Shown here piece by piece: positions 1-46,868 of a stretch of 64,000 bases of DNA. This DNA is from Escherichia phage vB_EcoS_ESCO30. The DNA lies in the sequence record NC_106513.1, one strand, 5' to 3'. The number at the start of each line of letters is the position of its first letter. Position 1 is the stretch's first letter. The position numbers were made by a program, and so were the translations under genes. The notes under the pieces were generated by a model. It did no database searches and was not told the DNA's origin. It saw nothing but the letters and a program-made list of their open reading frames with translations.

Positions 1-19
1 CACTATAAAAATTTTTGGG

Positions 20-104
20 GTCGGATTTGCACACTACCAAAAATTGTCGGATTTGCACATACACGCCAGCACGTAACCCTTGGAGCACATGTCGGATTTG
101 CACA
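20..104. repeat. Three direct copies of 14-mer GTCGGATTTGCACA (20-33, 46-59, 91-104)
   Basis: Exact repeats read directly from the sequence; no overlapping ORF with coding support. Confidence 0.8.
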
Positions 105-109
105 AAAGC

Positions 110-127
110 GCAGGGCAATTGCCCTGC
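110..127. repeat. Perfect 18-bp palindrome GCAGGGCAATTGCCCTGC
   Basis: Self-complementary sequence read directly. Confidence 0.8.
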
Positions 128-134
128 TCGCCTG

Positions 135-285
135 AATGCGAATGATAATGAGAATCAATCTCATTTAAAAAGTGAAATGCGAATGATAATGATTCGCATT
201 TAAGAAGGGGAATGAGAACTATTCAAGAAGTGAAATGATTCTCATTTAAAAAGTGGAATGCGAATGATAATGATTCGCATTTAAA
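135..285. repeat. Cluster of short inverted repeats (AAATGCGAAT-N7-ATTCGCATTT at about 175-201 and 257-283; AATGAGAAT/ATTCTCATT variants; further copy at 619-641)
   Basis: Repeated dyad-symmetric motifs read directly; typical appearance of dimeric protein-binding sites. Confidence 0.7.
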
Positions 286-314
286 AACGGAAGTGAGAAA
301 CACTGTTATTTAAG

Positions 315-391
315 TTATCCACAGACTTATTAACAGCACGATTTGACTTGACAGAATCCTAGCCATTTTGAGGCGTTATCCACAGACTTAT
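315..391 (+). promoter_or_regulatory. Two DnaA-box consensus 9-mers (TTATCCACA at 315-323 and 376-384) within a 16-bp direct repeat TTATCCACAGACTTAT
   Basis: Exact match to E. coli DnaA box consensus TTATNCACA; protein binding not demonstrated. Confidence 0.65.
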
Positions 392-404
392 CCCCAAGTT
401 ATTC

Positions 405-424
405 TACTGTATATTTATACAGTA
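405..424. repeat. Palindrome TACTGTATA-TT-TATACAGTA (core copy again at 3671-3686)
   Basis: 9-bp arms, 2-nt spacer; second copy lies next to the reverse-oriented DnaA boxes. Confidence 0.7.
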
Positions 425-680
425 TTCCTACGCAGTGAATAGTTCTAATATAGGCCTAAAACGTCCTGAATCGCATTCTAACGCGTTTAATTTTGGTGGG
501 GATACTAAAACAAGGGCAAAATTGGAGGAGGCTTAAAAATTAATTAGCTCGCTAATGATCACACAAGGCGACACGTAACACCCTAATCATTAGCAGGCTA
601 ACCATCGCGGGCGCGGTCAAATGAGAATGATTCTCATTTGAGAATTGGGGGCACTCCCTGATAGTTGCGCCCCGTGATTA

Positions 681-875
681 TTAGTCTGGTAGTCGATGCG
701 TGATTTTTTCCTCCTCCCCGTAGGAATCGACCAAATACTGATAATAACCATCGTGATCATAAATGACTTTATCATATTCGCCCCGCTCGACCGCTTGCCG
801 GTTTTCCGGCGTATCGGGCACATAGAAAACGTCAACCATTGTGGTAGTTTTAGTTATAATAATTTTATTGCTCAT
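681..875 (-). CDS. Hypothetical pre-early protein (64 aa)
   Basis: ATG start; part of a co-oriented minus-strand gene block; the 17-bp dyad abuts the start. Confidence 0.45.
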   Translation of the reverse strand: MSNKIIITKTTTMVDVFYVPDTPENRQAVERGEYDKVIYDHDGYYQYLVDSYGEEEKITHRLPD

Positions 876-892
876 AATAACGCCCCGTTATT
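876..892. repeat. 17-bp hairpin/dyad AATAACG-CCC-CGTTATT; identical copy at 2044-2060
   Basis: Exact 17-mer found twice, each just upstream of a minus-strand start codon. Confidence 0.7.
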
Positions 893-1085
893 AGTTGGCT
901 ATCTCAAAAATAGCGTTTTCAAGTGTCGCCCTTAGAAACCCATCGCGCCCTACTACGGAATACTTGAGATCGGGTATTTTGTAACGCTCGATTGTTTTGA
1001 GTAATTGATCTTTTTGGGCTTTATATTTTTGCCCTTCTCGCGCTATCGTGTCGCCTTCGGCTTTAACGCAAATCAGTGTAACCAT
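891..1085 (-). CDS. Hypothetical protein (64 aa)
   Basis: ATG start with AGGGGG SD-like upstream; tight spacing with neighbours. Confidence 0.45.
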   Translation of the reverse strand: MVTLICVKAEGDTIAREGQKYKAQKDQLLKTIERYKIPDLKYSVVGRDGFLRATLENAIFEIAN

Positions 1086-1186
1086 AATAACCCCCTAGTA
1101 AATATAATTTTGCCAATAGTGGCGAACGTTATCGCCACCAGCGGAATCATTTGCAGCCTCAACATTACCAACGAAAATATATAATT

Positions 1187-1531
1187 TCATTGTGCCACCT
1201 TTCGAAAAGCTGTTTCAATACTATCCGCAGTGGATTGAATATATGCGCCCTTCATGATCAGGCGCTCGGTGCATACTTTGCGAAAAATATTAATAAAATC
1301 ATCTTCATTTTCTGCAATTAACGCCTCACCCATGACCTGAATATCACAAGATGCGAAGGTCAAAAATTGAAATGCCAGTTCACGGGCAACGACCGCATTA
1401 ATCTTATAATGCGCTTTTCCCTCGTAAATATTAACAACGCCCTTATATTCAGGTGAAAGCTGGTTTAAGTAGTTTGCTAGCAATGCCGGACGGCAATTAG
1501 TAACAAAGCGATTGCCCTCATAAATTACCAT
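1187..1531 (-). CDS. Hypothetical protein (about 114 aa)
   Basis: Track ORF starts at TTG (1546); internal ATG at 1531 is preceded by GGGAGG at good spacing. Confidence 0.5.
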   Translation of the reverse strand: MVIYEGNRFVTNCRPALLANYLNQLSPEYKGVVNIYEGKAHYKINAVVARELAFQFLTFASCDIQVMGEALIAENEDDFINIFRKVCTERLIMKGAYIQSTADSIETAFRKVAQ

Positions 1532-1654
1532 TTTATAACCTCCCAATCAGATAACCAGATAAAAGCATAAAAACCCCTAGTAAAAGGGGGTCATTCTTAA
1601 ATAAGGTGGCGGTAAAACCGCCAACCATTGCAAGGATAACAACAATAACGCTTT

Positions 1655-1867
1655 TCATAGTACCCCACGAAAGGCCGCGTAAAAGGTGGCAAAATATTTA
1701 ACCTTTTCAGCTATCACGTTGCCGCGCTTATCGAATTTTTTCTCGGTAACACGAAAGGCATTTTTATTACGTGCTACATATTCGATTTTACAATCTTCAC
1801 GCTCGAACGTGTTAACGTCCACCAGCTTAAAACCCTTTGAACGAGCAAGAGAAACGTTGCGGATCAT
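1655..1867 (-). CDS. Hypothetical protein (70 aa)
   Basis: ATG with AAAGGAGAA SD immediately upstream. Confidence 0.45.
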   Translation of the reverse strand: MIRNVSLARSKGFKLVDVNTFEREDCKIEYVARNKNAFRVTEKKFDKRGNVIAEKVKYFATFYAAFRGVL

Positions 1868-1869
1868 TT

Positions 1870-2016
1870 TTATTCTCCTTTATTCATGCAGCCCAGCAAA
1901 TAAGAAAAAACAGCGATACCCGCGCCAACAATAACCGCGTGAACGCCGAAAGCTATAGCAAAAAAGGATAAAATAGCGCCCAAGATACCTGCTAAAATAG
2001 CTCGAAAAATAACCAT
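1870..2016 (-). CDS. Small hydrophobic peptide (48 aa, MVIFRAILAGILGAILSFFAIAFGVHAVIVGAGIAVFSYLLGCMNKGE)
   Basis: Hand-translated; below the ORF-track size cut-off; AGGAGA SD upstream; one or two predicted TM helices. Confidence 0.35.
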   Translation of the reverse strand: MVIFRAILAGILGAILSFFAIAFGVHAVIVGAGIAVFSYLLGCMNKGE

Positions 2017-2062
2017 TTTCATTCTCCTAGTTAGCGGGGCGAAAATAACGCCCCGTTATTAC

Positions 2063-2293
2063 TTACATTAAAACAATTTTTGCAGCTTGTTTTTTAGTGC
2101 AGTGTTCAGCTTTTAGGGTATCCAGCAAAAAGCCAGCCGTTTGCTGATCAATCTTATCAGCGTTATACAATTCTTGGATGGTGTTATAAGTTTTAGCAAT
2201 GCCATATTCTTGCACCATTTCGTGAATAATAACGCGGTTAGATACCCAGCCTTGAGCGGTGAACAGATGACTAGCAGAAGAATAAGCAACCAT
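2063..2293 (-). CDS. Hypothetical protein (76 aa)
   Basis: ATG with GGAGG SD upstream. Confidence 0.5.
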   Translation of the reverse strand: MVAYSSASHLFTAQGWVSNRVIIHEMVQEYGIAKTYNTIQELYNADKIDQQTAGFLLDTLKAEHCTKKQAAKIVLM

Positions 2294-2412
2294 TTTAAGC
2301 CTCCAATTTTTTTTGGGAAATTTTCAACCGTCCTCAAACGGTGTAAAGGCATTATAACAAAAAAGGCCACCAATTATGGCGGCCTTTACAAAACTTTACA
2401 TTAAATTAGTTA

Positions 2413-3405
2413 TTACTCGCTTTCGGTGTTAACGGTAAAAGTAGAAATATCAATACCTTTCACCATTTCGTCAATCATTTCAGCGATGTTAAAACTTTGC
2501 ACCATTTCTAACATAGCCGCTTCCATAGCTGCGCCTGCTACCGCTTTCGCTTTCTGGTTATTCGGGGCGTACTGGTCAACCGCTACGCTCAGCAGGTTGG
2601 CAATAACTACCCGACCAATCGGCGTATCAATATAACCTTTAATCATAAACGGCGCTTTTTTAGCCGCTACTTTCGTGATTTGAGTTAATGCAATTTTACC
2701 CGCTTCCAGTTTTGCAGCATTTACAACAGCGGATTTATTAGCGGCAACGATGTTAGCAATCTTGGTCATGGTGTTTTTTCCTTTGTTTTCAGTAGTTTGA
2801 GTTTTAACGCTTTGAGTGTTAGAATTTACAGCACGTTTTTCTGTATTGTCAATGGGCTGATCTTCCTCTTTCCAGAAAGTAAAACCAGCCTCCTCTATTA
2901 AATCATTATATACATACGGGTATAATTCCGACGGTAGCAAAAAATTGCCGTCATCATCAAAGGCCATTACAGCCGCCAGACGATAACCGTCATAATCTGA
3001 CCGATTCCAGCCAACTGATAAATAACGCCAAAATGAATCGAGAAAGTTTTCTACGTCATAAAGATCATTATCATTAGCCTCATAGTTTTCTATTGAAAAA
3101 CCTTCTAAGCCCGCCCCAGTATCATAGGCTTTTACTGTGTTGCCTTTTACGATTATGAAATCAGTATCCGGCCCCCGACTAGTGAGCAATTGATAATCCT
3201 GATTATACAAAACAAGCGTTGCCCCTTGTTTATATAACGGTAGAAAACTATTCATATTATAAGCGTCATATTCATCAAAAAAGTTTTGATGAATAGTTTC
3301 AATATTGAAAACAAAATGCCGGATGCTGGTTGTTCTGCTACCATCCAGCAGGTTACGCAGCGCACCTTTTAAGACGGTTGCGTTATCTGGTTTATATAGC
3401 CTCAT
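2413..3405 (-). CDS. Hypothetical pre-early protein (330 aa) with Ala/Lys-rich C-terminal region
   Basis: Long ORF, ATG start, GAGAGGG SD-like upstream; no motif recognised. Confidence 0.6.
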   Translation of the reverse strand: MRLYKPDNATVLKGALRNLLDGSRTTSIRHFVFNIETIHQNFFDEYDAYNMNSFLPLYKQGATLVLYNQDYQLLTSRGPDTDFIIVKGNTVKAYDTGAGLEGFSIENYEANDNDLYDVENFLDSFWRYLSVGWNRSDYDGYRLAAVMAFDDDGNFLLPSELYPYVYNDLIEEAGFTFWKEEDQPIDNTEKRAVNSNTQSVKTQTTENKGKNTMTKIANIVAANKSAVVNAAKLEAGKIALTQITKVAAKKAPFMIKGYIDTPIGRVVIANLLSVAVDQYAPNNQKAKAVAGAAMEAAMLEMVQSFNIAEMIDEMVKGIDISTFTVNTESE

Positions 3406-3670
3406 TTGTTGGCCCTCTCGTTAATCGGTGAGTAAATGATAAGGGTAATTTTCTAGCATAGGCAAAGATTATTTTACTTTTTTATTTTCCTTGCCTAGCG
3501 CCTAGTTTTATGCTAACCGCGCAGCGGCATAGTAAAGAGCAAAACACGGCGAAGCCACCAGGGCGACGCGTTGCGGCTTTACTTTAATATTACCCTACAG
3601 CGTTTTGCTCGTTAGAAAGCGATTTAGGCCGCTTATTTTGGGCATCATTATAATATGTTTCCCATTTACC

Positions 3671-3790
3671 CTGTATATTTATACAGTAGGATAACCTGTG
3701 GATAAGTCTGTGTAAAAGTGCTATAAAGCCTTCCTATTGTGTCAATCAAATTTACAAAATGTATAAACCTGTGGATAACGTTGTGGATAA
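3671..3790 (-). promoter_or_regulatory. Palindrome CTGTATATTTATACAG plus three reverse-oriented DnaA boxes (about 3697-3705, 3770-3778, 3782-3790)
   Basis: Reverse complement gives TTATCCACA three times; mirror image of the 315-424 module. Confidence 0.65.
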
Positions 3791-3897
3791 CTTAAATGAT
3801 AGTGGTTCTCACTACAGTAAAAACTTATTAGGTAGTCTGCTAACTATTTTGTTATAATATAATAGAGATTAAACTAATAACATAAGGAAACTATAAC

Positions 3898-4425
3898 ATG
3901 GGTAAATATAAACATATTGATTATGAGACTGTTAATAAATACTTTTATTATGATGAATCATCGCCATCATTTCTAAGGTGGAAAGTAACGCGAGGAAATA
4001 AAAAGGCCGGTGATATTGCCGGATGTATTAATAACGATGGTTACTATACCGTAGGTTATGATTACGGTGTTTACAGTGTGCATCGTATCATATGGGTATT
4101 ATTTCATGGTGAAATAGATAGCGCCTTATTAATTGATCATATAGATAATAACCGGCTAAATAATAACATTAAAAACTTACGTTTAGTTGATCATATGCAG
4201 AATAATAATAATCGTGTTAATAGTAAGCGTGATAATGATTTACCTCGTTTTATTTATCGTAGTAGTAATGGCAAGCGTGATAGTAACGGACGTGATTATT
4301 TGCTGGCTCAAATTAGGATTCCTAATAGTAAGCGGCGCATTAGTAAGTCTGGTTATGATTTACCTACGTTACTAGATTGGGTGATCAAAAAATGTGCAGA
4401 GCATGGCATTCAGTATAATATTTAA
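3898..4425 (+). CDS. HNH homing endonuclease (175 aa)
   Basis: N-terminal YYDESSPSFLRWK and HRIIW motifs, DHIDNN...NLRLV HNH-type core; very AT-rich. Confidence 0.7.
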   Translation: MGKYKHIDYETVNKYFYYDESSPSFLRWKVTRGNKKAGDIAGCINNDGYYTVGYDYGVYSVHRIIWVLFHGEIDSALLIDHIDNNRLNNNIKNLRLVDHMQNNNNRVNSKRDNDLPRFIYRSSNGKRDSNGRDYLLAQIRIPNSKRRISKSGYDLPTLLDWVIKKCAEHGIQYNI

Positions 4426-4460
4426 AAGTCAAATATTTTATTTAATAAATTAACGCAATG

Positions 4461-4490
4461 CCCCTTGATTTTTATAAGTCAAGGGGTTTT
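4461..4490 (+). terminator. Rho-independent terminator-like hairpin (CCCCTTGA...TCAAGGGG + TTTT)
   Basis: GC stem followed by T-run just after the HNH stop. Confidence 0.6.
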
Positions 4491-4885
4491 CGTATTTATT
4501 TCATTTTTGCTTTTGTTAAATACTTGTTACATCGAAAATAAGCGGCCTAAAACGCCCTAGAAAGCGATAAAGTTTTCAGCCATCCCATCATAAGGGGGCA
4601 GCCCGTTTATCGTCACCTGATGGATTCTAGAAAAATCAAGTAGGGCAAGGCAAATATAAATGAAAAAATTACTTGCCTATCTGCTCGGTTTTATGGTATT
4701 CGCGCGCCCGTTTCTTTTAATTTTAGGTGAGCGCCGGACGCGGTGCGAGTATTTGCTTTCTTTACATTTCTTTACAAAAACAAGGTTGCACCTTTTTCGT
4801 TGTTTGCTATTATTTATCTCGTAGGGCGGCAATGACGAACTACACGGCGGTAAACTTCCCGCCGCGCTCTTTAAAAATTGGGTAT

Positions 4886-5164
4886 ATCTTAAAGCCTATC
4901 GGCGGTAAACTTATATATTATAAGGAATCGCAGATATGAAACAAACGCTTTTAATAACTGGTAAACCAGCTAAAAAATTGGATGGCAATACTAAAAAATT
5001 GTTGACAATAGCCCAGCAATCCGTAAAATACCGATTTGCGCAGTACAAGAAAGGCCGCCAGCAAGGTCTGGAAATGATCTGGCGCAATATTATGATCGAC
5101 CTGAAGGAAAATCATAAAAAACTGCAAAAAATAGTTTGACTTCCTAGCCGATAGGCTTTAAGAT
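4886..5164. repeat. Perfect 18-bp inverted repeat pair ATCTTAAAGCCTATCGGC (4886-4903) and its reverse complement (5147-5164) flanking ORF 4936-5139
   Basis: Read directly; right copy overlaps a TTGACT-17-TAAGAT promoter-like element. Confidence 0.7.
4936..5139 (+). CDS. Small basic protein (67 aa), flanked by the 18-bp inverted repeats
   Basis: ATG with AAGGA SD-like; Lys/Arg-rich. Confidence 0.4.
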   Translation: MKQTLLITGKPAKKLDGNTKKLLTIAQQSVKYRFAQYKKGRQQGLEMIWRNIMIDLKENHKKLQKIV

Positions 5165-5367
5165 GTACCCAGTTCGATAAGAGTGATAACTTGATAAAAT
5201 TTGACGGTCGGCACTTACCATAATGTGTCCCGCCCCCTAACTGGGATATAGCGGCCTGCGAGGAGTTCTTTAAATTGATTATAATGGCGAGTGGATTTTT
5301 TCTTATTATCTGCTACTTTCTAGCAGATAATGCGGAACAATCCGCTTAATAAACTGGAGTTTATACC

Positions 5368-5619
5368 ATGAAAAACGTTATTACCACGCCTAAAATTGGT
5401 CAATCCGTTTTCATTCCTTTCGTTACTAAAACGGACGAATTAACCGGAAAGGCCGAACGCATTAAAGGTGCGGCGCTTATGCCGTTTGATGTAATTGATG
5501 CGGTATACGCTGAAACGGAACGGAGTAACAACGGAAAAACTGTTTACAACGTTCGCGTTAAATCCGGCGACGTTGTAAAGGTTGCCCAGCGTAACGAAAA
5601 ATGGGAAGCTGTAGCGTAA
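5368..5619 (+). CDS. Hypothetical protein (83 aa)
   Basis: ATG with CTGGAG SD-like; followed by a hairpin at about 5631-5660. Confidence 0.5.
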   Translation: MKNVITTPKIGQSVFIPFVTKTDELTGKAERIKGAALMPFDVIDAVYAETERSNNGKTVYNVRVKSGDVVKVAQRNEKWEAVA

Positions 5620-5715
5620 TAGTGTTACTTTTATATGCCCCAGTAGTTCGGGGCATATAACGATTAACATTATGTTAATCTTATCCCTTAAATTAAATTA
5701 ACAGGAGCTATAATC

Positions 5716-6123
5716 ATGACTAACGTTAAAACCGCAAAATTTGCATGGAATGAAGAAAACACCCAAAAAGCTGTTTCTATGTATCAGCAATTAATCAACG
5801 AAAACGGTTTAGATTTCGCAAATAGCGACGGTTTAAAAGAGATTGCAAAAGCAGTGGGCGCGGCTTCTCCCGTGTCTGTTCGCTCAAAATTGACCAGCGC
5901 GAAAGCGTATCAGAAAAGCGATAAGCCTCGTAAAGTTGGCGGCGGTAGTTCTATCCGCAAAGCGCATTATGTGCGCGTTATTGCAAAACATGCGATCGAT
6001 TCCGGCATTATCAAAGACGCCGACGATCTGGCATCACTGGAAAGTGCAAAATTGGAAACGCTGGACGCCGTGGCGCAACTATTGGGCGTTGCCGATGAAG
6101 TAAAACAGGCCGCAGGCGAATAA
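5716..6123 (+). CDS. Putative HTH DNA-binding protein (135 aa)
   Basis: Motif EIAKAVGAASPVSVRSKLTSAK resembles the HTH module repeated in ORF 52460-53227. Confidence 0.5.
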   Translation: MTNVKTAKFAWNEENTQKAVSMYQQLINENGLDFANSDGLKEIAKAVGAASPVSVRSKLTSAKAYQKSDKPRKVGGGSSIRKAHYVRVIAKHAIDSGIIKDADDLASLESAKLETLDAVAQLLGVADEVKQAAGE

Positions 6124-6180
6124 ATTTAAATAGCGGGGAATATTCCCCGCTATAATTTCCCTTTGACTGGAGTTATTAAA

Positions 6181-6378
6181 ATGATCTTTTACCCCACTGA
6201 ATCACTAATTTTGGGCTTGTTTATTATGGCGGCCTCGTTATTGTTCGCATACTTCCAAAATGATCTGGATTCGTATTATTTTAAGCGCAAATCTAAGTTA
6301 GCGAAGCGGTTAGGCTTACTTTGTTTAATCGCCGCCGTTGTTTGCGGTGTTAGTTCTAGCCTGATGCCGATTAGTTAA
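6181..6378 (+). CDS. Small membrane protein (about 65 aa)
   Basis: Internal ATG at 6181 with CTGGAG SD; two hydrophobic segments. Confidence 0.4.
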   Translation: MIFYPTESLILGLFIMAASLLFAYFQNDLDSYYFKRKSKLAKRLGLLCLIAAVVCGVSSSLMPIS

Positions 6379-6475
6379 ATATTGCAAATTATAACGCCTA
6401 TTATTCAAGGCGTTATATCTGGCAATATTTGCCAATAACAAACGTTTTTTAATCCCTTTAACGGAGTTTATTACT

Positions 6476-8143
6476 ATGGTTATTTCCGCAGAAAAACAAT
6501 CCCAGATCATTAAACTTGCCGCTGATTTCAATTTCTATGGTAAACGTCTGCGCGCTACTAAACTGGAGGTCTGCGACGATATTTCAAAAGCGGTTTACGA
6601 TACTGCAAAATATTCCACCGCTATCTGCGACTGGTTGGAAGCAAATAAACCAGCGAAACCAAAAGCGGCGAAAGTAGCAAAAGCCATAAAAAACGACGAG
6701 CGCCCCGAAGCGGCTGGGATTGTTTCTAGTACCGTGGAACAGTGGGAAGTAAAACAAGGTAAACGCTTTATTATTACATCGATTCAGAATAATACTTTTC
6801 CTCATAAAAACTTTTTAGCCGCGCTTGAACAATATGCCCAATTTATCGGTGCTGATTTGCTGGTTAGCAAGTATATTTATAATAAAAACGGATTCCAAAA
6901 TGGTGAGGGCGCGGACGGAATCAAATATGATTCTGCGTTTGATAAATATATCTGCAATAAAAACGTGTTTTTGAATAATCGCCGTTTTGCTTTCATGGCT
7001 GAGATTAACGTGTTACCAACTGCAGATTATCCGCTGTCTGGATTCGCAGAAACTGCAACGGCTTTAAATATTGAAGGTCTGGCAATTGGTCACGCTAAAA
7101 TCACCGCCGAAAGCGTGCCAGCTTTAAAAGGTGAAGTAGTGCGCCGTATGTACTCAACCGGAACGGCGACGTTAAAAAACTACATTCAGCAGAAAGCAGG
7201 ACAAAAGGCCGAAGCGCTGCATAATTTCGGCGCGTTGATTGTCGAGTTCGATGAGGACGGTGAGTTTTTTGTTCGCCAGCTTGAAACAATGGATGAAAGC
7301 GGCATGTTTTATGATCTGAATGTTTGCGCTACTCCCGCCGGATGTTTTGAAACGTCCGATCATGTTTTAGGCTTGCAATATGGCGACATACACGCCGAAA
7401 AATTGGATGACGCTTGCGCCGTTGCGTCATGGGCTGGCGAAAATAGCTTGCTTGATATTCTCAAGCCTAAATATCAGTTTATCCATGACGTTCACGATTT
7501 TACATCGCGCAACCATCACAACCGCGCTTCTGGTGTATTCCTAGCAAAACAGTATGCCGCCGGACGTGATAAAGTTCTGGATGATCTCATCGATACCGGA
7601 CGCGTGCTGGAGTCAATGGAACGTGATTTTAGTCAAACAATCATTGTTGAATCAAACCACGATCTGGCGCTATCCCGTTGGCTGGATGATCGTAATGCTA
7701 ACATTAAAGACGACCCAGCAAACGCGGAACTATATCACCGCCTTAATGCTGCAATTTACGCGGCAATCGGTGATCATGACGATACTTTCAACGTGCTAGA
7801 TTATGCGTTGCGCAAGGTTGCAGGTTGTGAGTTTAATGCCATTTTCCTAACGACTGATCAATCTTTCAAGATTGCAGGCATTGAATGCGGCGTACACGGT
7901 CACAATGGCATAAACGGGAGCCGTGGCAATCCGAAGCAATTTAAGAAATTGGGCAAATTAAACACGGGGCACACTCATACCGCCAGTATTTACGGCGGCG
8001 TTTATACTGCTGGCGTGTCTGGTAGTCTGGACATGGGTTACAACGTTGGCGCGTCAAGCTGGACGCAAACGCATGTTATTACCTATGCAACCGGTCAGCG
8101 TACTCTGATCGACTTTAAGAATGGTAAATTTTTTGTACAGTAA
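6476..8143 (+). CDS. A1: A1-like pre-early protein, calcineurin/Mre11-type metallophosphatase nuclease (555 aa)
   Basis: Metallophosphoesterase motifs GDIHAE, ESNHD, GHTHT; size and position match my memory of T5 A1 (about 556 aa). Confidence 0.7.
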   Translation: MVISAEKQSQIIKLAADFNFYGKRLRATKLEVCDDISKAVYDTAKYSTAICDWLEANKPAKPKAAKVAKAIKNDERPEAAGIVSSTVEQWEVKQGKRFIITSIQNNTFPHKNFLAALEQYAQFIGADLLVSKYIYNKNGFQNGEGADGIKYDSAFDKYICNKNVFLNNRRFAFMAEINVLPTADYPLSGFAETATALNIEGLAIGHAKITAESVPALKGEVVRRMYSTGTATLKNYIQQKAGQKAEALHNFGALIVEFDEDGEFFVRQLETMDESGMFYDLNVCATPAGCFETSDHVLGLQYGDIHAEKLDDACAVASWAGENSLLDILKPKYQFIHDVHDFTSRNHHNRASGVFLAKQYAAGRDKVLDDLIDTGRVLESMERDFSQTIIVESNHDLALSRWLDDRNANIKDDPANAELYHRLNAAIYAAIGDHDDTFNVLDYALRKVAGCEFNAIFLTTDQSFKIAGIECGVHGHNGINGSRGNPKQFKKLGKLNTGHTHTASIYGGVYTAGVSGSLDMGYNVGASSWTQTHVITYATGQRTLIDFKNGKFFVQ

Positions 8144-8213
8144 GCCAATAAATTAAAACCTTATTTGCCTAAATCCTCCAATTAATGAGATAATATTAAT
8201 TGGAGGAATATAA

Positions 8214-8723
8214 ATGGCAAAAGAAATAGATTTTAATGAAGTTAACGAGAATGTTTATTATGATGAATCTAGCCCATCATTTTTACGATGGAAAATAAGT
8301 AAGCCCGGTGTAAAAGCGGGAAGTGTAGCGGGAACATTAAATCAGACAGGCTATTATGATGTAATGATTAACGGTGAATTATATAAAGCTCATCGTTTAA
8401 TTTGGGTTTTATTTAATAAAGAAATTAACCCTGATTTAGATATAGATCATAAAGTAATTTCTTACCCCGTTAACAACGATATAAATAATTTACGCCTAGT
8501 TACTCATGCGGTTAATATGACAAATAAGAGTGATTATAAAAGGCGTAATAAACTACCGAAATATATTTATCTTGATAAAGTTGATCCCATAGCGGGAGAA
8601 TATTACAGGGCAAAAATTAAAAACCCTATAACAAATAAATATGTTTCAAAAGGCAATTATGATTTATCTATTCTTTTAGAATGGGTTAAATCAAAGTGTA
8701 AAGAATTTAATATCCCTTATTAA
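8214..8723 (+). CDS. HNH homing endonuclease (169 aa), paralog of 3898-4425
   Basis: Shares YYDESSPSFLRWK, HRLIWVLF and NNLRLV motifs with 3898-4425; GGAGG SD. Confidence 0.7.
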   Translation: MAKEIDFNEVNENVYYDESSPSFLRWKISKPGVKAGSVAGTLNQTGYYDVMINGELYKAHRLIWVLFNKEINPDLDIDHKVISYPVNNDINNLRLVTHAVNMTNKSDYKRRNKLPKYIYLDKVDPIAGEYYRAKIKNPITNKYVSKGNYDLSILLEWVKSKCKEFNIPY

Positions 8724-8742
8724 ATTAATTGGAGTTATAAAC

Positions 8743-9138
8743 ATGGCTATTTCTAACCGTATTCCATTCGATCGCGCTCAATCCTCAATTGTTCTGGTTT
8801 ATTCTAATGGTGAACGTTACCACGTCGAGGCGGGGCACGTTATTGATGAGCTATTGGACTTTAACGACGGCTTGCAGGTTACTACCTTTGCATATACCAC
8901 GGGCAAACTATCAAGCCGCATCAAGGCGAAAGGCGTTTATATTGACACGGTGAAACAAGAAACGATTATCATCGACGCCGTAAAATCCGGCCTTGCCTTT
9001 GCAGTTGTCGCGCCTTGCCCCGCTTGCCTTGATGATCAATTGATCAGCGCAAAAGTATATACTTGTGCGGGGATTCGTTCCAGCGTATCAGGTGAGGATG
9101 TTAGTTTTATCGCTGATGCGTTAGCATATGGCCTTTGA
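8743..9138 (+). CDS. Hypothetical pre-early protein (131 aa), possible A2 equivalent
   Basis: ATG with TGGAG SD; follows A1-like gene; assignment by position only. Confidence 0.5.
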   Translation: MAISNRIPFDRAQSSIVLVYSNGERYHVEAGHVIDELLDFNDGLQVTTFAYTTGKLSSRIKAKGVYIDTVKQETIIIDAVKSGLAFAVVAPCPACLDDQLISAKVYTCAGIRSSVSGEDVSFIADALAYGL

Positions 9139-9218
9139 TAGTTGATTTATTATTGCCCGCTGATAAATAGCGGGCAATGCTGAATTAATCTAATCCCTTA
9201 AATGGAGAACGTAACAAA

Positions 9219-9953
9219 ATGAATCAAGTTAAAATGAATATTACCCGTAATTTCCCGCATATTTCCCGCGTCATGATTTGGGATCTGGACGGCACTATCA
9301 TTAATTCGTTTCATCGTGTAGCGCCTTGCTTTGATAGCGAGGGCAATTTAGATTTAAATAAGTATAAAAATGAAGCCTGCAAACATGATTTAATAATGCA
9401 AGATACACTATTGCCCCTTGTTACATATATGCGCCAGTGCATGAATGACGCAAATACTTTAAACATTATTTGCACCGCTCGACTAATGAGCAAGTCGGAC
9501 TATTATTATTTGCGTAAACAAGGGTTGCGCGGTCGTGGTGATAGTAATATCCGCGTGTTTTCCCGCGATACACTACACAAATATTTTGAGGCTGATAAAG
9601 TTAGCGAGATATACCACAGCAAAGACGCAGTTTATAAAAGTTACTATTTTGGGTTATTCAAACAATTATATCCGAACGCTGATTTTACGATGATTGATGA
9701 TCATAAAGGCGTGCTATCAGCGGCGGCATCATACGGATTTAAAACGCTGGACGCGCAAGCCGTTAACGATATTCTATCAATCGGTGTCACATTGATAGGT
9801 GAAACCTTTATTGATGAATCTCTTGAGGATGATAATGATTATCAGTTCCTAGCCGACCGCCTGCAATTATGTTGGGAAGGTATGACCGAGGAGGAACGCG
9901 CGGAATATAGTTGCAGCCCGCAACAATATATTGAGAAATTAAAAGTTGCGTAA
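9219..9953 (+). CDS. dmp: HAD-family 5'-deoxyribonucleotidase (Dmp-like, 244 aa)
   Basis: N-terminal HAD motif MIWDLDGTIINS (DxDGT); pre-early position as in T5. Confidence 0.65.
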   Translation: MNQVKMNITRNFPHISRVMIWDLDGTIINSFHRVAPCFDSEGNLDLNKYKNEACKHDLIMQDTLLPLVTYMRQCMNDANTLNIICTARLMSKSDYYYLRKQGLRGRGDSNIRVFSRDTLHKYFEADKVSEIYHSKDAVYKSYYFGLFKQLYPNADFTMIDDHKGVLSAAASYGFKTLDAQAVNDILSIGVTLIGETFIDESLEDDNDYQFLADRLQLCWEGMTEEERAEYSCSPQQYIEKLKVA

Positions 9954-9970
9954 TAATTAAAGTTGAAATT

Positions 9971-10007
9971 GTTTCACCCTGCAATTAAAATGGTTGCAGG
10001 GTGAAAC
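9971..10007. terminator. Strong 14-bp-stem hairpin GTTTCACCCTGCAA...TTGCAGGGTGAAAC between convergent genes
   Basis: Perfect inverted repeat read directly; lies between dmp (+) and the minus-strand peptide operon. Confidence 0.6.
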
Positions 10008-10117
10008 AGTTAGCATGGTAATAGTAACGGGGGTGGCGGTTAGCAGACTAAGTATTTTCGCCGGAGGCAGTGAGCACACCTTCATGTGTAATCTTATGAA
10101 ATTTCGAGATTTCCCAA

Positions 10118-10363
10118 TTAGCGCATAGAATGGTCGTCAAACCTGTGTTCTGGTCTGAACTCACGGAATCTCTTCCGCGACGCCCGAGATCCATCCGACC
10201 ACTCCCGCTCAAACTCCGCACGTTTCTCGTCAAACTTCCGCTCCCTTTCCGCAATCTCCCGCGATACTTCCGCAGTATACTTACGATGCTTGTTAATAGC
10301 CGCAGTCATTCCGAAAACTCCCGCGAGTACCCCGATAATAAAAGCAACTATAATACTAAACAT
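10118..10363 (-). CDS. Small single-pass membrane protein with charged C-terminal tail (81 aa)
   Basis: N-terminal hydrophobic helix MFSIIVAFIIGVLAGVFG; GAGAGGG SD; last gene of the coupled array. Confidence 0.5.
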   Translation of the reverse strand: MFSIIVAFIIGVLAGVFGMTAAINKHRKYTAEVSREIAERERKFDEKRAEFEREWSDGSRASRKRFREFRPEHRFDDHSMR

Positions 10364-16336: not shown

Positions 16337-17553
16337 TGGGTTTTAAAAGCTGGATTACTGAAAAGCTAAATCCGGGTCAACGTATTATAAGAGACATGGA
16401 ACCAGTTAGTCATCGCACTAACCGTAAGCCTTTTACCACTGGACAAGCCTACAGTAAAATTGAGATTCTCAATAGAACTGCTAATATGGTTATAGATAGT
16501 GCGGCGGAGTGTTCTTATACTGTCGGAGATAAATATAATATTGTCACGTATGCCAATGGCATCAAGGCAAAGACTCTAGACACTCTCTTAAATGTACGAC
16601 CTAATCCATTCATGGATATAAGCACATTCCGTAGACTTGTAGTCACTGACCTACTTTTTGAAGGTTGTGCATACATCTATTGGGATGGCACAGCACTTTA
16701 TCATGTCCCTGCTGCATTAATGCAAGTAGAGGCAGATGCCAATAAGTTTATCAAAAAATTTATATTTAATAACCAGATAGACTATCGCGTAGATGAGATT
16801 ATCTTTATAAAGGATAACAGTTACGTGTGTGGCACAAATTCTCAAATTTCTGGACAATCTCGTGTTGCTACTGTTATTGATTCTCTCGAGAAGCGTTCTA
16901 AAATGCTTAACTTTAAAGAGAAGTTCCTCGATAACGGAACCGTGATTGGTCTTATTCTTGAGACGGATGAAATCCTGAACAAGAAATTGCGTGAGCGTAA
17001 ACAAGAAGAATTACAACTCGATTATAATCCTAGTACTGGTCAGTCTTCTGTCCTGATTCTAGATGGTGGTATGAAAGCTAAACCGTACTCCCAAATATCC
17101 TCTTTTAAAGATCTAGACTTTAAGGAAGACATCGAAGGATTTAATAAATCTATTTGTCTAGCCTTTGGAGTTCCGCAAGTACTGCTTGATGGTGGTAATA
17201 ATGCGAATATTCGACCAAACATCGAATTGTTCTATTATATGACTATCATTCCTATGCTGAACAAACTGACTAGTTCTCTTACTTTCTTTTTTGGTTATAA
17301 GATTACCCCTAATACTAAGGAGGTAGCTGCATTAACACCAGATAAAGAAGCTGAGGCTAAACATTTAACCTCATTGGTTAATAATGGTATTATGACTGGT
17401 AACGAAGCTCGTTTAGAGCTGAACCTTGAACCTTTAGATGATGAGCAGATGGATAGGATTCGTATTCCTGCTAACGTTGCTGGTTCTGCAACAGGTGTAT
17501 CTGGTCAAGAAGGTGGTAGACCTCAAGGTTCCACCGAGGGAGATAAAGAATGA
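16336..17553 (+). CDS. Portal protein (405 aa)
   Basis: Position after terminase, size, start coupled to upstream stop. Confidence 0.65.
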   Translation: MGFKSWITEKLNPGQRIIRDMEPVSHRTNRKPFTTGQAYSKIEILNRTANMVIDSAAECSYTVGDKYNIVTYANGIKAKTLDTLLNVRPNPFMDISTFRRLVVTDLLFEGCAYIYWDGTALYHVPAALMQVEADANKFIKKFIFNNQIDYRVDEIIFIKDNSYVCGTNSQISGQSRVATVIDSLEKRSKMLNFKEKFLDNGTVIGLILETDEILNKKLRERKQEELQLDYNPSTGQSSVLILDGGMKAKPYSQISSFKDLDFKEDIEGFNKSICLAFGVPQVLLDGGNNANIRPNIELFYYMTIIPMLNKLTSSLTFFFGYKITPNTKEVAALTPDKEAEAKHLTSLVNNGIMTGNEARLELNLEPLDDEQMDRIRIPANVAGSATGVSGQEGGRPQGSTEGDKE

Positions 17554-40917: not shown

Positions 40918-42756
40918 TTATTCTAAGTAGGAAAATCCTTCTGCATCTTTTTTGACAGTAATCTTATGAGCTAATGGATGCGTATGCCCATGAGAAACAA
41001 TGATAGAATTTAGACTTTCTTCCTCATTTAATAGTTCAACGAGAGTATCAAGTCCTTTCGTATCAATAAAGCTAATTACTTCATCAAGGAATAGAAGATT
41101 AATATTAACTTTACTAATAGATGTTAACAGCATCCGAATAGCTAACAGGGTTGCTAGATTAATTCTACTTTGCTGACCAGTAGAGCAGTTCTCCATACTG
41201 GTACGATTTCCATCATTGAAGATTACTACTTGTAATTTCGTTTCATCAAGTTCAAACCCAAGTGCGAATTTACCACCAGTCATAATGGAAAGGTATTTAT
41301 TAATTAGTTCTTCAAATACTTTCACACTATGCTCTAGTTTATACCCCACCAGATTTTTCAAAGCAGCAATTAGAATATCAAGATCAGCTACAGCTTCTGA
41401 TACTCCATCAAGTTTGGAAGTAATTTCAGTCATTTCTGCTTCAGCTTTCTCAATCTGTTCTAGTTTCGCTTTATATTTTGCATTAGCTAATTCGACATTT
41501 GCATTATGCTCTTTGGCAATTGCAACCTTAGAGCGGCCATCAGCGATTTCCTGTTCTAATTGTCGGATTTGCACCTGTAGGATTTGCACATTGAGTTCTT
41601 CAAAAGAAGCATCACTCATTGAATTTTTGAACTCGTCTCTAGCTACCACTGCTTTATCCAAAGCATCCTTTGCTCTAGAATACGCAATGTACTCAAGTTG
41701 TTCTTTTTTCAACTGTCCTAGCTTAGCTTCAAGGGATTGCTTCTCTTTGAACAGAGGATCATATTCTACTCTAGCCATATCCATTGCTTTTTGAGCAGCA
41801 GTTGTATCCAGGTGAGTACCACAAGTAGGGCATTCAGTATTTGAAGCCTCTTGCTTGAACTTCTGATAACGTTTCTTAACTTCGCTCGCACGTGAGGTCA
41901 CAATCGTTAGGTCACGCGTAACACTCGAGATCTCTTCATTTTGGTCGGTGGGCGCGGGCAAATTTTTGAAAGGTTCAAAAGATTGTTCGGCAACTTGTAC
42001 AGCTTTGTCCAAATTACGCAACTTAGTAATATTAGCCTCTTGAGACTTGGCTAATGCCGCCTTAATTTTCGATTCAGTAAGTTCTTGTGCTAATGGCTCT
42101 TCATCAAACTCCGGCACCTCTACAGGTTCCTGCAAAGTTCCTAGATTATTTTTTCCATTAAGGATTTTCGTAATTACAGCCATTTGGCCCTGCAAATTAT
42201 TTAAGGTATTTGCTATTTCTTTACGGTCGGCCTTAATAGTTTCCGACATTTCTTTGTATTGTTCTTGGTTGAACAAGTTAACAAGAAAAGCCTTACGTGT
42301 TGCATCTGTTGCTTTTAGAAAATCTAGATTAGAACCCACTGATTGATAAATCAGTTTGGTGAATGTTTGAAAGTCACCACCCATAATTTCTTCAATCATC
42401 TTATATGTTTGGGTTGCCGTATGCCCACTAATATCTTCTCCATTCTTAATGAGTGTAACCTTAGCAGTTGATTTAACTACTTTATGCAATTCATACTCAT
42501 CTTCATCTTTTGAGAAGTAAGCGTGCATATCATACTCTTTTTTCGGAGAAGACCAAGAGAACAGAGCATCCTTCTTAATACCACGTGAGTTCTTATTATA
42601 GAACAGCTCTTCTATAACCGTGGCGATGGTAGATTTCCCTAGCCCATTGCCCCCGATTAGTTGAGTAACTGGATTCTTATCGAAATGAATTACGATATCC
42701 TTACCGTAAGACATAACGTTACTAAATTTTAGTGTCTTAATTGTAATCTTTGACAT
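40918..42756 (-). CDS. SbcC/Rad50-like ATPase (about 612 aa)
   Basis: N-terminal Walker A GGNGLGKST, long coiled coil, C-terminal signature/Walker B LFLDEVISFID; start re-picked at MSKITIK. Confidence 0.8.
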   Translation of the reverse strand: MSKITIKTLKFSNVMSYGKDIVIHFDKNPVTQLIGGNGLGKSTIATVIEELFYNKNSRGIKKDALFSWSSPKKEYDMHAYFSKDEDEYELHKVVKSTAKVTLIKNGEDISGHTATQTYKMIEEIMGGDFQTFTKLIYQSVGSNLDFLKATDATRKAFLVNLFNQEQYKEMSETIKADRKEIANTLNNLQGQMAVITKILNGKNNLGTLQEPVEVPEFDEEPLAQELTESKIKAALAKSQEANITKLRNLDKAVQVAEQSFEPFKNLPAPTDQNEEISSVTRDLTIVTSRASEVKKRYQKFKQEASNTECPTCGTHLDTTAAQKAMDMARVEYDPLFKEKQSLEAKLGQLKKEQLEYIAYSRAKDALDKAVVARDEFKNSMSDASFEELNVQILQVQIRQLEQEIADGRSKVAIAKEHNANVELANAKYKAKLEQIEKAEAEMTEITSKLDGVSEAVADLDILIAALKNLVGYKLEHSVKVFEELINKYLSIMTGGKFALGFELDETKLQVVIFNDGNRTSMENCSTGQQSRINLATLLAIRMLLTSISKVNINLLFLDEVISFIDTKGLDTLVELLNEEESLNSIIVSHGHTHPLAHKITVKKDAEGFSYLE

Positions 42757-46374: not shown

Positions 46375-46868
46375 AATTTTATTCTAAGTCTAGGAATTTC
46401 AGGCTCCTCTTGATGGACTTGATAAATAACAGGGCTATTATTTACCAGAATATAGCTTATATAAGCTGGAACATAGGATAATACAAATGGATATGGAACT
46501 TTAGCTACATAGCATTGGTATTTTCCGTTATAAATTCTAGCTGAATGCAAAACTTTAGAGGTGACAACATCATAGAACGTAGTTTTCTTCCAGTTAATAA
46601 GATTTCCATCAGAATCTATAAATTGGCTACGCTTTGACCCAACTAATTGAGACAACATTGATATTCTACCTCTAATAGGGTAGAGCTTGTATGGTAATTC
46701 TTTCCGTTTCTCAAATAGGATAAGCCTACGTTGAGAAAACGTGCCAGGCAACTTCCTGTTATCTAGCACATATTTATTATATCTTGTTGTAATTACGGAA
46801 TAATCACCTTCTTGCTCAATTGATACAAACGCCCGTAAAGCATATACGGGCAATTTGAAATCAAGCAC
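46371..46868 (-). CDS. Hypothetical protein (165 aa)
   Basis: Non-ATG start in track; coupled to polymerase stop. Confidence 0.4.
   Translation of the reverse strand: MLDFKLPVYALRAFVSIEQEGDYSVITTRYNKYVLDNRKLPGTFSQRRLILFEKRKELPYKLYPIRGRISMLSQLVGSKRSQFIDSDGNLINWKKTTFYDVVTSKVLHSARIYNGKYQCYVAKVPYPFVLSYVPAYISYILVNNSPVIYQVHQEEPEIPRLRIKL

Follow-up and report, generated by a model that had tools for sequence, protein, structure and literature searches.

Paired DnaA boxes and candidate LexA operators in the first-step-transfer inverted repeat of the T5-like phage ESCO30

Introduction

Injection of phage T5 DNA halts once 8% of the genome has entered and later resumes, and this behaviour has been a standing question since the 1960s. 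The inverted repeat of the T5 first-step-transfer (FST) DNA is the closest described counterpart of the element reported here, which lies in a 64,000-nt stretch (hereinafter the window) of Escherichia phage vB_EcoS_ESCO30 (ESCO30; sequence record NC_106513.1) and in which paired DnaA boxes adjoin a palindrome that reads as a LexA operator. The T5 element was described by Davison in the 2020 preprint 'Phage T5 two-step injection' as a 131-bp inverted repeat conserved in 25 T5-like phages, with arms IRC-spacer-IRD at 6022–6152 and IRD'-spacer-IRC' at 9332–9462 and, by definition, a constant 52-bp spacer between the halves of each arm (10.1101/866236). The arms bear eight DnaA or variant boxes, 'always in pairs separated by 3 bp' (10.1101/866236). 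As cited in that preprint, the first DnaA box was reported in 1987 (Heusterspreute), and Wang 2005 is also a source for the element (via 10.1101/866236). Membrane-bound DnaA on these boxes was proposed as the injection arrest (10.1101/866236), and this is the only molecular proposal for the T5 stop. Later papers restate the description of repeat and boxes and call the DnaA arrest experimentally untested (PMC10644984; PMC13250531).

In the T5 record, a leftward pre-early operon (dmp, A1, A2 ... hegG) and a rightward operon (T5.011–T5.017, followed by a terminator) have divergent promoters at 5938–6012 and 6411–6489, and the feature 'injection stop signal (iss)' spans 9140–10149. We compared the ESCO30 locus with this arrangement and with the corresponding loci of close and distant relatives.

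Results

Two modules of ESCO30 correspond to the arms of the T5 repeat

Positions 1–3813 of the window are the reverse complement of a T5-like left terminal repeat (for example SPC35 9211–5394; megablast). This region contains two modules:

287–424, plus strand: module 1, homologue of T5 IRD'-spacer-IRC' plus the adjoining palindrome
3669–3818, minus strand: module 2, homologue of T5 IRC-spacer-IRD plus the palindrome, with a 12-nt insertion

Module 1 is 94% identical to T5 over 201 nt (T5 record L128) and module 2 is 88% identical over 175 nt. In a four-way alignment, module 1 and reverse-complemented module 2 are collinear with both T5 repeats. The position of module 1 is inside iss, and that of module 2 is between the divergent pre-early promoters. 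With both the location in the terminal repeat (synteny with T5 and SPC35) and the homology of the arms in place, the modules are the ESCO30 copies of the T5-type FST inverted repeat. A first-pass annotation, made from the letters alone, had stated that T5 is known to carry DnaA boxes near its injection stop region and had proposed that this region could be the equivalent. The T5 boxes are described in the literature (10.1101/866236), and the alignment, together with the synteny, establishes the equivalence.

The modules contain the following DnaA boxes:

315–335, plus strand: DnaA box pair A, TTATCCACA at 315–323, gap gac, TTATTAACA at 327–335 with two mismatches
376–396, plus strand: DnaA box pair B, TTATCCACA at 376–384, gap gac, TTATCCCCA at 388–396 with one mismatch
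3697–3717, minus strand: DnaA box pair C, TTATCCACA at 3697–3705 and TTTTACACA at 3709–3717, which fits TTWTNCACA
3758–3790, minus strand: DnaA box triple D, degenerate TTATACATT at 3758–3766, TTATCCACA at 3770–3778 and TTATCCACA at 3782–3790, with a period of 12 nt

The window has five exact copies of TTATCCACA, every one inside the modules, against a shuffle expectation of 0.63; none of 100 dinucleotide-preserving shuffles yields five copies. The consensus TTWTNCACA has 9 matches in the 64 kb, 6 of them inside the modules, which thus have the clustered 9-mers of a DnaA-binding locus. An exact TTATCCACA is always paired with a second box across a 3-bp gap, giving four pairs (315/327, 376/388, 3697/3709, 3770/3782). 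Specifically, the modules have the eight DnaA/DnaA* boxes in four 3-bp-gapped pairs that characterise the T5-type repeat, plus the degenerate extra unit at 3758. The first box of pair A is exact in 24 of 30 T5-like phages.

A palindromic 16-mer, CTGTATATTTATACAG, occurs exactly at 407–422 and 3671–3686, where 0.08 occurrences with at most two mismatches are expected. From the order of the elements, the palindrome adjoining module 1 is probably palD in the naming of Wang and Davison. The repeat finder pairs 348–422 with 3671–3745 (75 nt, 73%) and 287–336 with 3769–3818 (50 nt, 80%), so that the modules are true inverted repeats of about 140–150 nt. The offset between these arms is the 12-nt insertion in module 2, which duplicates one box-plus-gap unit. 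The two direct and three reverse exact 9-mers, the palindrome beside each box cluster and the inverted orientation of the modules had all been read correctly in the first-pass annotation.

The insertion (ACGTTATCCACA in the orientation of module 1; region 3758–3793) is absent from the other 29 aligned phages, and module 2 at its full length has no match above 86% identity in the phage record collection. At the outer end of the homologous T5 arm there are a degenerate box and one exact box only; with its extra exact box, ESCO30 module 2 has in effect regained an eighth good box. The pair-to-pair distance is 61 nt in module 1, the same as in T5, and 73 nt in module 2, because of the inserted 12-nt unit. 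The ESCO30 repeat is thus like that of T5 in genomic position, order of elements, sequence (88–94% identity), 3-bp-gapped box pairs and the location of one arm in iss, and differs in the extra box unit of module 2, the three boxes outermost and the spacing of 73 instead of 61 nt. Its DnaA-box architecture is known from earlier descriptions of T5-like phages, of which ESCO30 is one more member with a duplicated box, and the host-DnaA-dependent control region suggested in the first-pass annotation is the published standing hypothesis.

Two further observations concern the sequence of the modules. At their outer ends (287–313 and 3791–3818) lies a highly conserved element, GAAGTGAGAAACACTnTTATTTAAG and its complement, which hardly varies across 30 phages and can still be recognised in a Proteus phage. 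At the centre of the palindrome, two bases alternate between TT and AA, both from phage to phage and from one arm to the other; in the window the plus strand has TT in both arms, and the palindrome centre therefore breaks the inverted-repeat symmetry.

The palindrome reads as a LexA operator

Extended to 20 bp, the palindromes of the two modules are as follows:

405–424, no strand assigned: LexA-type operator of module 1, TACTGTATATTTATACAGTA, 19/20 to TACTG(TA)5CAGTA
3669–3688, no strand assigned: LexA-type operator of module 2, CCCTGTATATTTATACAGTA, 17/20 to TACTG(TA)5CAGTA

No match of this quality is expected by chance. The module 1 operator starts 8 nt past the second box of pair B (10 nt to its CTG core), and the CAG core of the module 2 operator ends 10 nt ahead of the first box of pair C.

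Sites were scored with an approximate weight matrix built from 29 E. coli LexA operators of the literature. The module 1 and module 2 operators score 25.0 and 22.4 bits, respectively, and the 29 operators themselves score 12.7–23.4 bits, so that the module 1 site tops all of them. In random sequence of the same composition, a score of 20 bits or more is expected at 0.01 sites per 64 kb. Four sites in the window reach 15 bits, against 0.23 expected, and two of these are the module sites. The next-best site, of 17.1 bits, is at 48259–48278 inside an 855-aa open reading frame (ORF; 46861–49428), and a further match, of 15.6 bits, is at 16437–16456; these two are probably not functional.

Both module sites have the CTGT-N8-ACAG palindrome of an SOS box and, by sequence, are canonical LexA operators. 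They resemble E. coli SOS boxes in consensus agreement (19/20 and 17/20), in matrix scores on a par with or above those of the strongest chromosomal operators in the matrix, and in conserved CTGT and ACAG ends with a variable centre across phage relatives. They differ, as read from the sequence, in lying off conserved promoters, in the first-injected DNA of a virulent phage, and next to DnaA boxes. Overlap with a repressed promoter was not found at either site; the homologue of the T5 gene 011 promoter is about 180 bp off.

The words 'LexA' and 'SOS' have 0 occurrences in the Davison preprint (10.1101/866236). Full-text literature searches that combined LexA with T5, T5-like or taxon names gave nothing relevant, and a mention in older work (1987, 2005, 2015) is possible. 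The LexA-operator identity of the palindrome and the family-wide coupling of this motif to DnaA boxes are new, as are the block inversion and the dispensability of module 2 described below. The first-pass annotation had missed the LexA operator, its distance of about 180 bp from the promoter, and the fact that module 2 lies inside a viable T5 deletion.

Both motifs persist where the surrounding sequence does not

Both modules were aligned across a close set of 40 loci around A2 homologues, from about 29 distinct phages. In module 1 (30 sequences), column entropy is 0.13–0.29 bits in the boxes and 0.14 bits in the LexA 20-mer, against 0.37 bits in the spacer and 0.48 bits in the 3' flank. In module 2, it is 0.19 bits in the LexA 20-mer and 0.15–0.42 bits in the boxes from the first of pair C to the first of triple D, against 0.58 bits in the spacer and 0.58–0.63 bits in the flanks. 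In none of the 30 sequences does the module 1 operator fall below 22.9 bits. The operator variants observed (CTGG, CTGTAC, centre TT or AA) are found in genuine operators as well.

The distant set consists of six Demerecviridae found through A1 (Klebsiella, Erwinia, Proteus and three Vibrio lineages; A1 identity 72% to 31%), extended by viral contigs from an A1 profile search. A pattern scan of viral contigs with TTATCCACAGACTTAT gave mostly unrelated contigs, and protein-anchored loci were used instead. The gene layout is unchanged in all members of the distant set. At A1 identities of 31–44% (Proteus, the three Vibrio lineages and metagenomic contigs), the flanks are not alignable with T5. 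The top two or three LexA-matrix matches in each distant locus of 13–26 kb are at the module positions. The operators retain CTGTAT...ATACAG, while the centre varies and loses its symmetry (CTGTATATCCATACAG, CTGTATAAACATACAG, CTGTATATAATTACAG, CTGTTTATTTATACAG), which fits recognition by LexA rather than a hairpin. Exact TTATCCACA also persists, with altered number and orientation; in Vibrio phage D51, for instance, the boxes are back to back. The gap from the nearest box to CTG holds at 8–12 nt. Across 16 distant loci (279 kb), 20 of the 24 sites of at least 19 bits have a DnaA box (one mismatch at most) no more than 35 bp away, where 4.8% of positions qualify; the nominal binomial P of 4e-23 overstates this adjacency, because the loci share ancestry. 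That consensus motifs are conserved, rather than their surroundings or hairpin symmetry, is the main argument for sites matched to host proteins. A host-specific test for covariation of the LexA motif through an A1-bearing Rhizobium phage was inapplicable, since that phage has no FST-like layout.

On one metagenomic contig (L215), there are 14 exact copies of TTATCCACA in 3.3 kb (4443–7740) of the presumed FST region, far above T5.

Clusters of DnaA boxes outside the origin are known at datA and DARS and at transcription blocks such as asnC/mioC. The modules are like these in combining consensus R-type 9-mers with weaker neighbours outside an origin, and differ in having no IHF match, a 12-bp head-to-tail period, a duplicated and inverted arrangement, and a LexA operator coupled to each cluster. 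The clustering and phasing of the boxes and the 14 copies on the contig above would suit a DnaA-dependent replication origin or a datA-like locus that titrates DnaA. The window, however, has no match in its first 23 kb to the IHF consensus WATCAANNNNTTR, which an oriC-like locus should have beside its boxes; an AT-rich unwinding element was likewise not identified, though no formal search for one was made, and the T5 origins are elsewhere, near the genome centre, with replication genes that are not expressed from FST DNA (10.1101/866236). An origin or titration site is thus highly improbable.

The same motifs could also be recognised by phage proteins instead of host proteins, with the palindrome as the target of the A1 nuclease, of the DNA-binding protein A2, or of both. 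A1 and A2 are the sole pre-early genes essential for second-step transfer (10.64898/2026.04.02.716235), and Davison's 'A1 restriction enzyme' idea lists palindromes of the region, including palD, at which cleavage might free the paused DNA (10.1101/866236). In addition, a basic core of A2 (SVRSKL...RKVGGGSS.RK.YVR) is kept in vibriophages at 40% overall identity, so that a conserved specificity is possible. On the other hand, phage-specific sites would have to match the highest-affinity DnaA 9-mer and the LexA consensus by two coincidences, and the transfer pause predates phage proteins. The predicted model of A2 is an unremarkable helical protein, whose best structural match in the PDB has E = 0.67 and for which LexA ranks 24 with E = 4.4. 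We regard recognition by A1 or A2 as unlikely, though far from negligible. The related idea that A2 is a LexA mimic was rejected: A2 has no Pfam or PDB sequence match, and its AlphaFold model (predicted local distance difference test score 85) has no significant fold match.

The bracketed operon, its promoter and the dispensable arm

The modules bracket one operon and its promoter:

681–3405, minus strand: accessory pre-early operon, eight ORFs, homologues of T5.011–T5.017
3412–3490, minus strand: homologue of the promoter upstream of T5 gene 011 (T5 6411–6489), collinear sequence

The first-pass annotation had counted seven minus-strand ORFs here, the number of genes that the T5 annotation lists for the corresponding block; we find eight that are supported by homology (330, 76, 50, 70, 41, 114, 64 and 64 aa), with 64–97% identity to T5 proteins (tblastn). 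The 330-aa protein is DUF7566, and the 70-aa protein belongs to PHROG 4227, annotated as an endonuclease that nicks abasic sites made by host Ung. The T5 gene 011 promoter is described as experimentally characterised (10.64898/2026.04.02.716235).

These genes and promoters bear on whether the modules are ordinary operators, at which LexA and DnaA would repress pre-early promoters and make the toxic 011–017 genes, or the hegG/A2/A1 side, responsive to SOS or DnaA. The position of module 2 between divergent promoters would suit such a role, as would the nicking endonuclease of the block and the toxicity of 011 and 015 when expressed alone (10.64898/2026.04.02.716235). Weak promoter-like matches also overlap the module 2 operator (3716–3688 and 3677–3650, minus strand). 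Such matches are not enriched, however (17 vs 12.9 expected), and the candidates that overlap the operator lack conservation in the alignment. The homologue of the mapped 011 promoter is outside the operator, at the distance given above, and module 1 is downstream of the operon and its terminator, where no promoter is known. With no conserved overlapping promoter, and with module 1 downstream of the operon, the operators are probably not conventional repressor sites, and we consider a purely regulatory role quite improbable.

In two Klebsiella-type phages (L160, 5349–6284; L163, 6751–8966), the T5.011 homologue (37% identity) and the homologue of the 114-aa protein are on the opposite strand, between the equivalent two modules and with the transcriptional order preserved. 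Thus, the whole inter-module segment has undergone at least one inversion. Davison noted no more than 'ORFs read in the opposite direction', without DNA homology (10.1101/866236). The arrangement is like the invertible G segment of Mu and C segment of P1 in that a gene block is bracketed by inverted repeats and is found in both orientations among relatives. It differs in that the block has no invertase gene, has its promoter inside, and changes orientation between distant lineages only, not within a population. A site-specific recombinase, which a programmed invertible segment would encode, was not found among the eight block proteins or in the neighbouring HNH gene (Pfam/PHROG).

The inversion is one reason to ask whether the repeats are kept mainly as recombination substrates for inversion or exchange of an accessory cassette, their resemblance to protein sites being secondary. 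The inter-module distance also varies from 1.7 to 4.1 kb among close relatives, and the two arms stay alike within each genome. Homology anchors, however, need no exact 9-mers, and both motifs persist in vibriophage modules that cannot be aligned; the lack of a recombinase family is a further point against this explanation. As the main reason for conservation we hold it to be improbable, and it is compatible with a docking function rather than exclusive of it.

A T5 mutant without 'hegG to 017' is viable and forms small plaques (10.64898/2026.04.02.716235). Its junction primers map to T5 5361–5389 and 9161–9186, so that the deletion is 5390–9160. Module 2 is therefore removable in a viable T5, and pairing of the two arms cannot be essential. 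In the laboratory, module 2 is dispensable.

Injection stop signal repeats and neighbouring genes

The other features of the region are listed below.

1–300, plus strand: iss repeat region, collinear with T5 9540–9860, inside iss 9140–10149
3898–4425, plus strand: HNH homing endonuclease, hegG-like (Pfam HNH_3, 6.9e-15; PHROG 99)
5716–6123 (window coordinates): A2
6476–8143 (window coordinates): A1
9219–9953 (window coordinates): dmp

The HNH gene adjoins module 2, the same arrangement as in T5. The iss region contains three GTCGGATTTGCACA repeats (20–33, 46–59 and 91–104), a palindrome GCAGGGCAATTGCCCTGC (110–127), 66-nt direct repeats (153–218 and 234–299) and AAATGCGAATGATAATGATTCGCATTT palindromes. 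The iss repeat GTCGGATTTGCAC(A) has three copies at the window start and two adjacent copies about 41.5 kb away (41562–41574 and 41577–41589). It has 9–10 same-strand copies in T5 and in the Klebsiella and Erwinia relatives, and 1–2 in some Vibrio phages (A1 about 31%); from this distribution, it looks like another conserved protein-binding motif.

The iss palindromes AATGCGAATGATAATGATTCGCATT and AATGAGAATGATTCTCATT (134–300, 617–640) resemble the Fur box GATAATGATAATCATTATC. With at most five mismatches, there are seven Fur-box-like matches in 138–641 and 18 in the window, 15 of them in the first 10 kb, against 4.3 expected for the window. The best match in the window, with three mismatches, is at 9825–9849 (both strands) inside the dmp gene. 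The likeness to Fur boxes is weak, and the sites may belong to some other protein. Terminator-like hairpins number 13 in 1–4000, against 3.6 expected; one, at 2362–2387, follows the gene of the 330-aa protein. A search for structured RNA in 1–4500 gave only sub-threshold Rfam matches, at a terminator.

Discussion

We propose, with a probability of about 0.5, that each arm is a composite docking site for host DNA-binding proteins and acts ahead of phage gene expression. LexA and DnaA are abundant in the cell ahead of infection. The transfer pause precedes any phage protein (10.64898/2026.04.02.716235). Because these host proteins are present beforehand, and because the pause requires no phage protein, we take the modules to be docking sites for LexA and DnaA. 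From their motifs, DnaA and LexA probably bind the modules; that the modules take part in the transfer pause we put forward only tentatively.

In the proposed arrangement, each arm would present two DnaA box pairs, phased at 12 bp and about 40 bp apart, then a linker, then a LexA operator that faces the bracketed operon. The DNA enters with its dmp end first, namely from high to low window coordinates. Module 2 would therefore enter at about 6 kb, and module 1 last, about 100–200 bp before the pause point. At module 1 the order of entry would be operator, proximal box pair, spacer, distal box pair, and then the iss repeats with the pause. DnaA would oligomerise from the exact boxes onto their weaker partners, and together with a LexA dimer it may form a stable nucleoprotein complex at the inner edge of iss. 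Such a complex might help to keep the end of the FST DNA in place or to mark it, either as an anchor, as Davison proposed, or as a roadblock against transcription into, or pulling of, the un-injected DNA. A further option is that it signals that LexA and DnaA are coming free as the host chromosome is degraded. Module 2 would serve as an auxiliary copy.

Several points weigh against this proposal. If T5 grows on the recA strains used for cloning, cleavage of LexA cannot be an obligatory step; for this reason we rejected it as a necessary trigger of restart. Proteins bound on the cytoplasmic side are not obviously a stop to DNA entry. The T5 deletion of 5390–9160 takes out module 2 (boxes at 6121 and 6194, and the palindrome), while module 1 stays. 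Some lineages (L225, L219) keep the DnaA boxes without a LexA operator, and in four close phages TTG replaces the CTG of module 2. The matrix used to score LexA sites is itself approximate. Finally, reviews call the functional role of the region untested (PMC10644984).

The LexA reading nevertheless adds to the DnaA proposal a second, easily purified host protein with a defined 20-bp target, at a time when genome engineering of T5 exists. The block inversion, and the survival of T5 without module 2, leave module 1 as the arm to explain. It is conceivable, if doubtful, that host LexA together with DnaA is a working part of T5-type FST control. From coliphages to vibriophages a canonical SOS operator stays within about 10 bp of DnaA boxes, so that the two host proteins would load onto the DNA that enters last ahead of the pause. 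A1 breaks down the host chromosome and hence the cell's own LexA and DnaA sites, and occupancy of the phage sites could then report the breakdown of host DNA and so time the hold and the restart.

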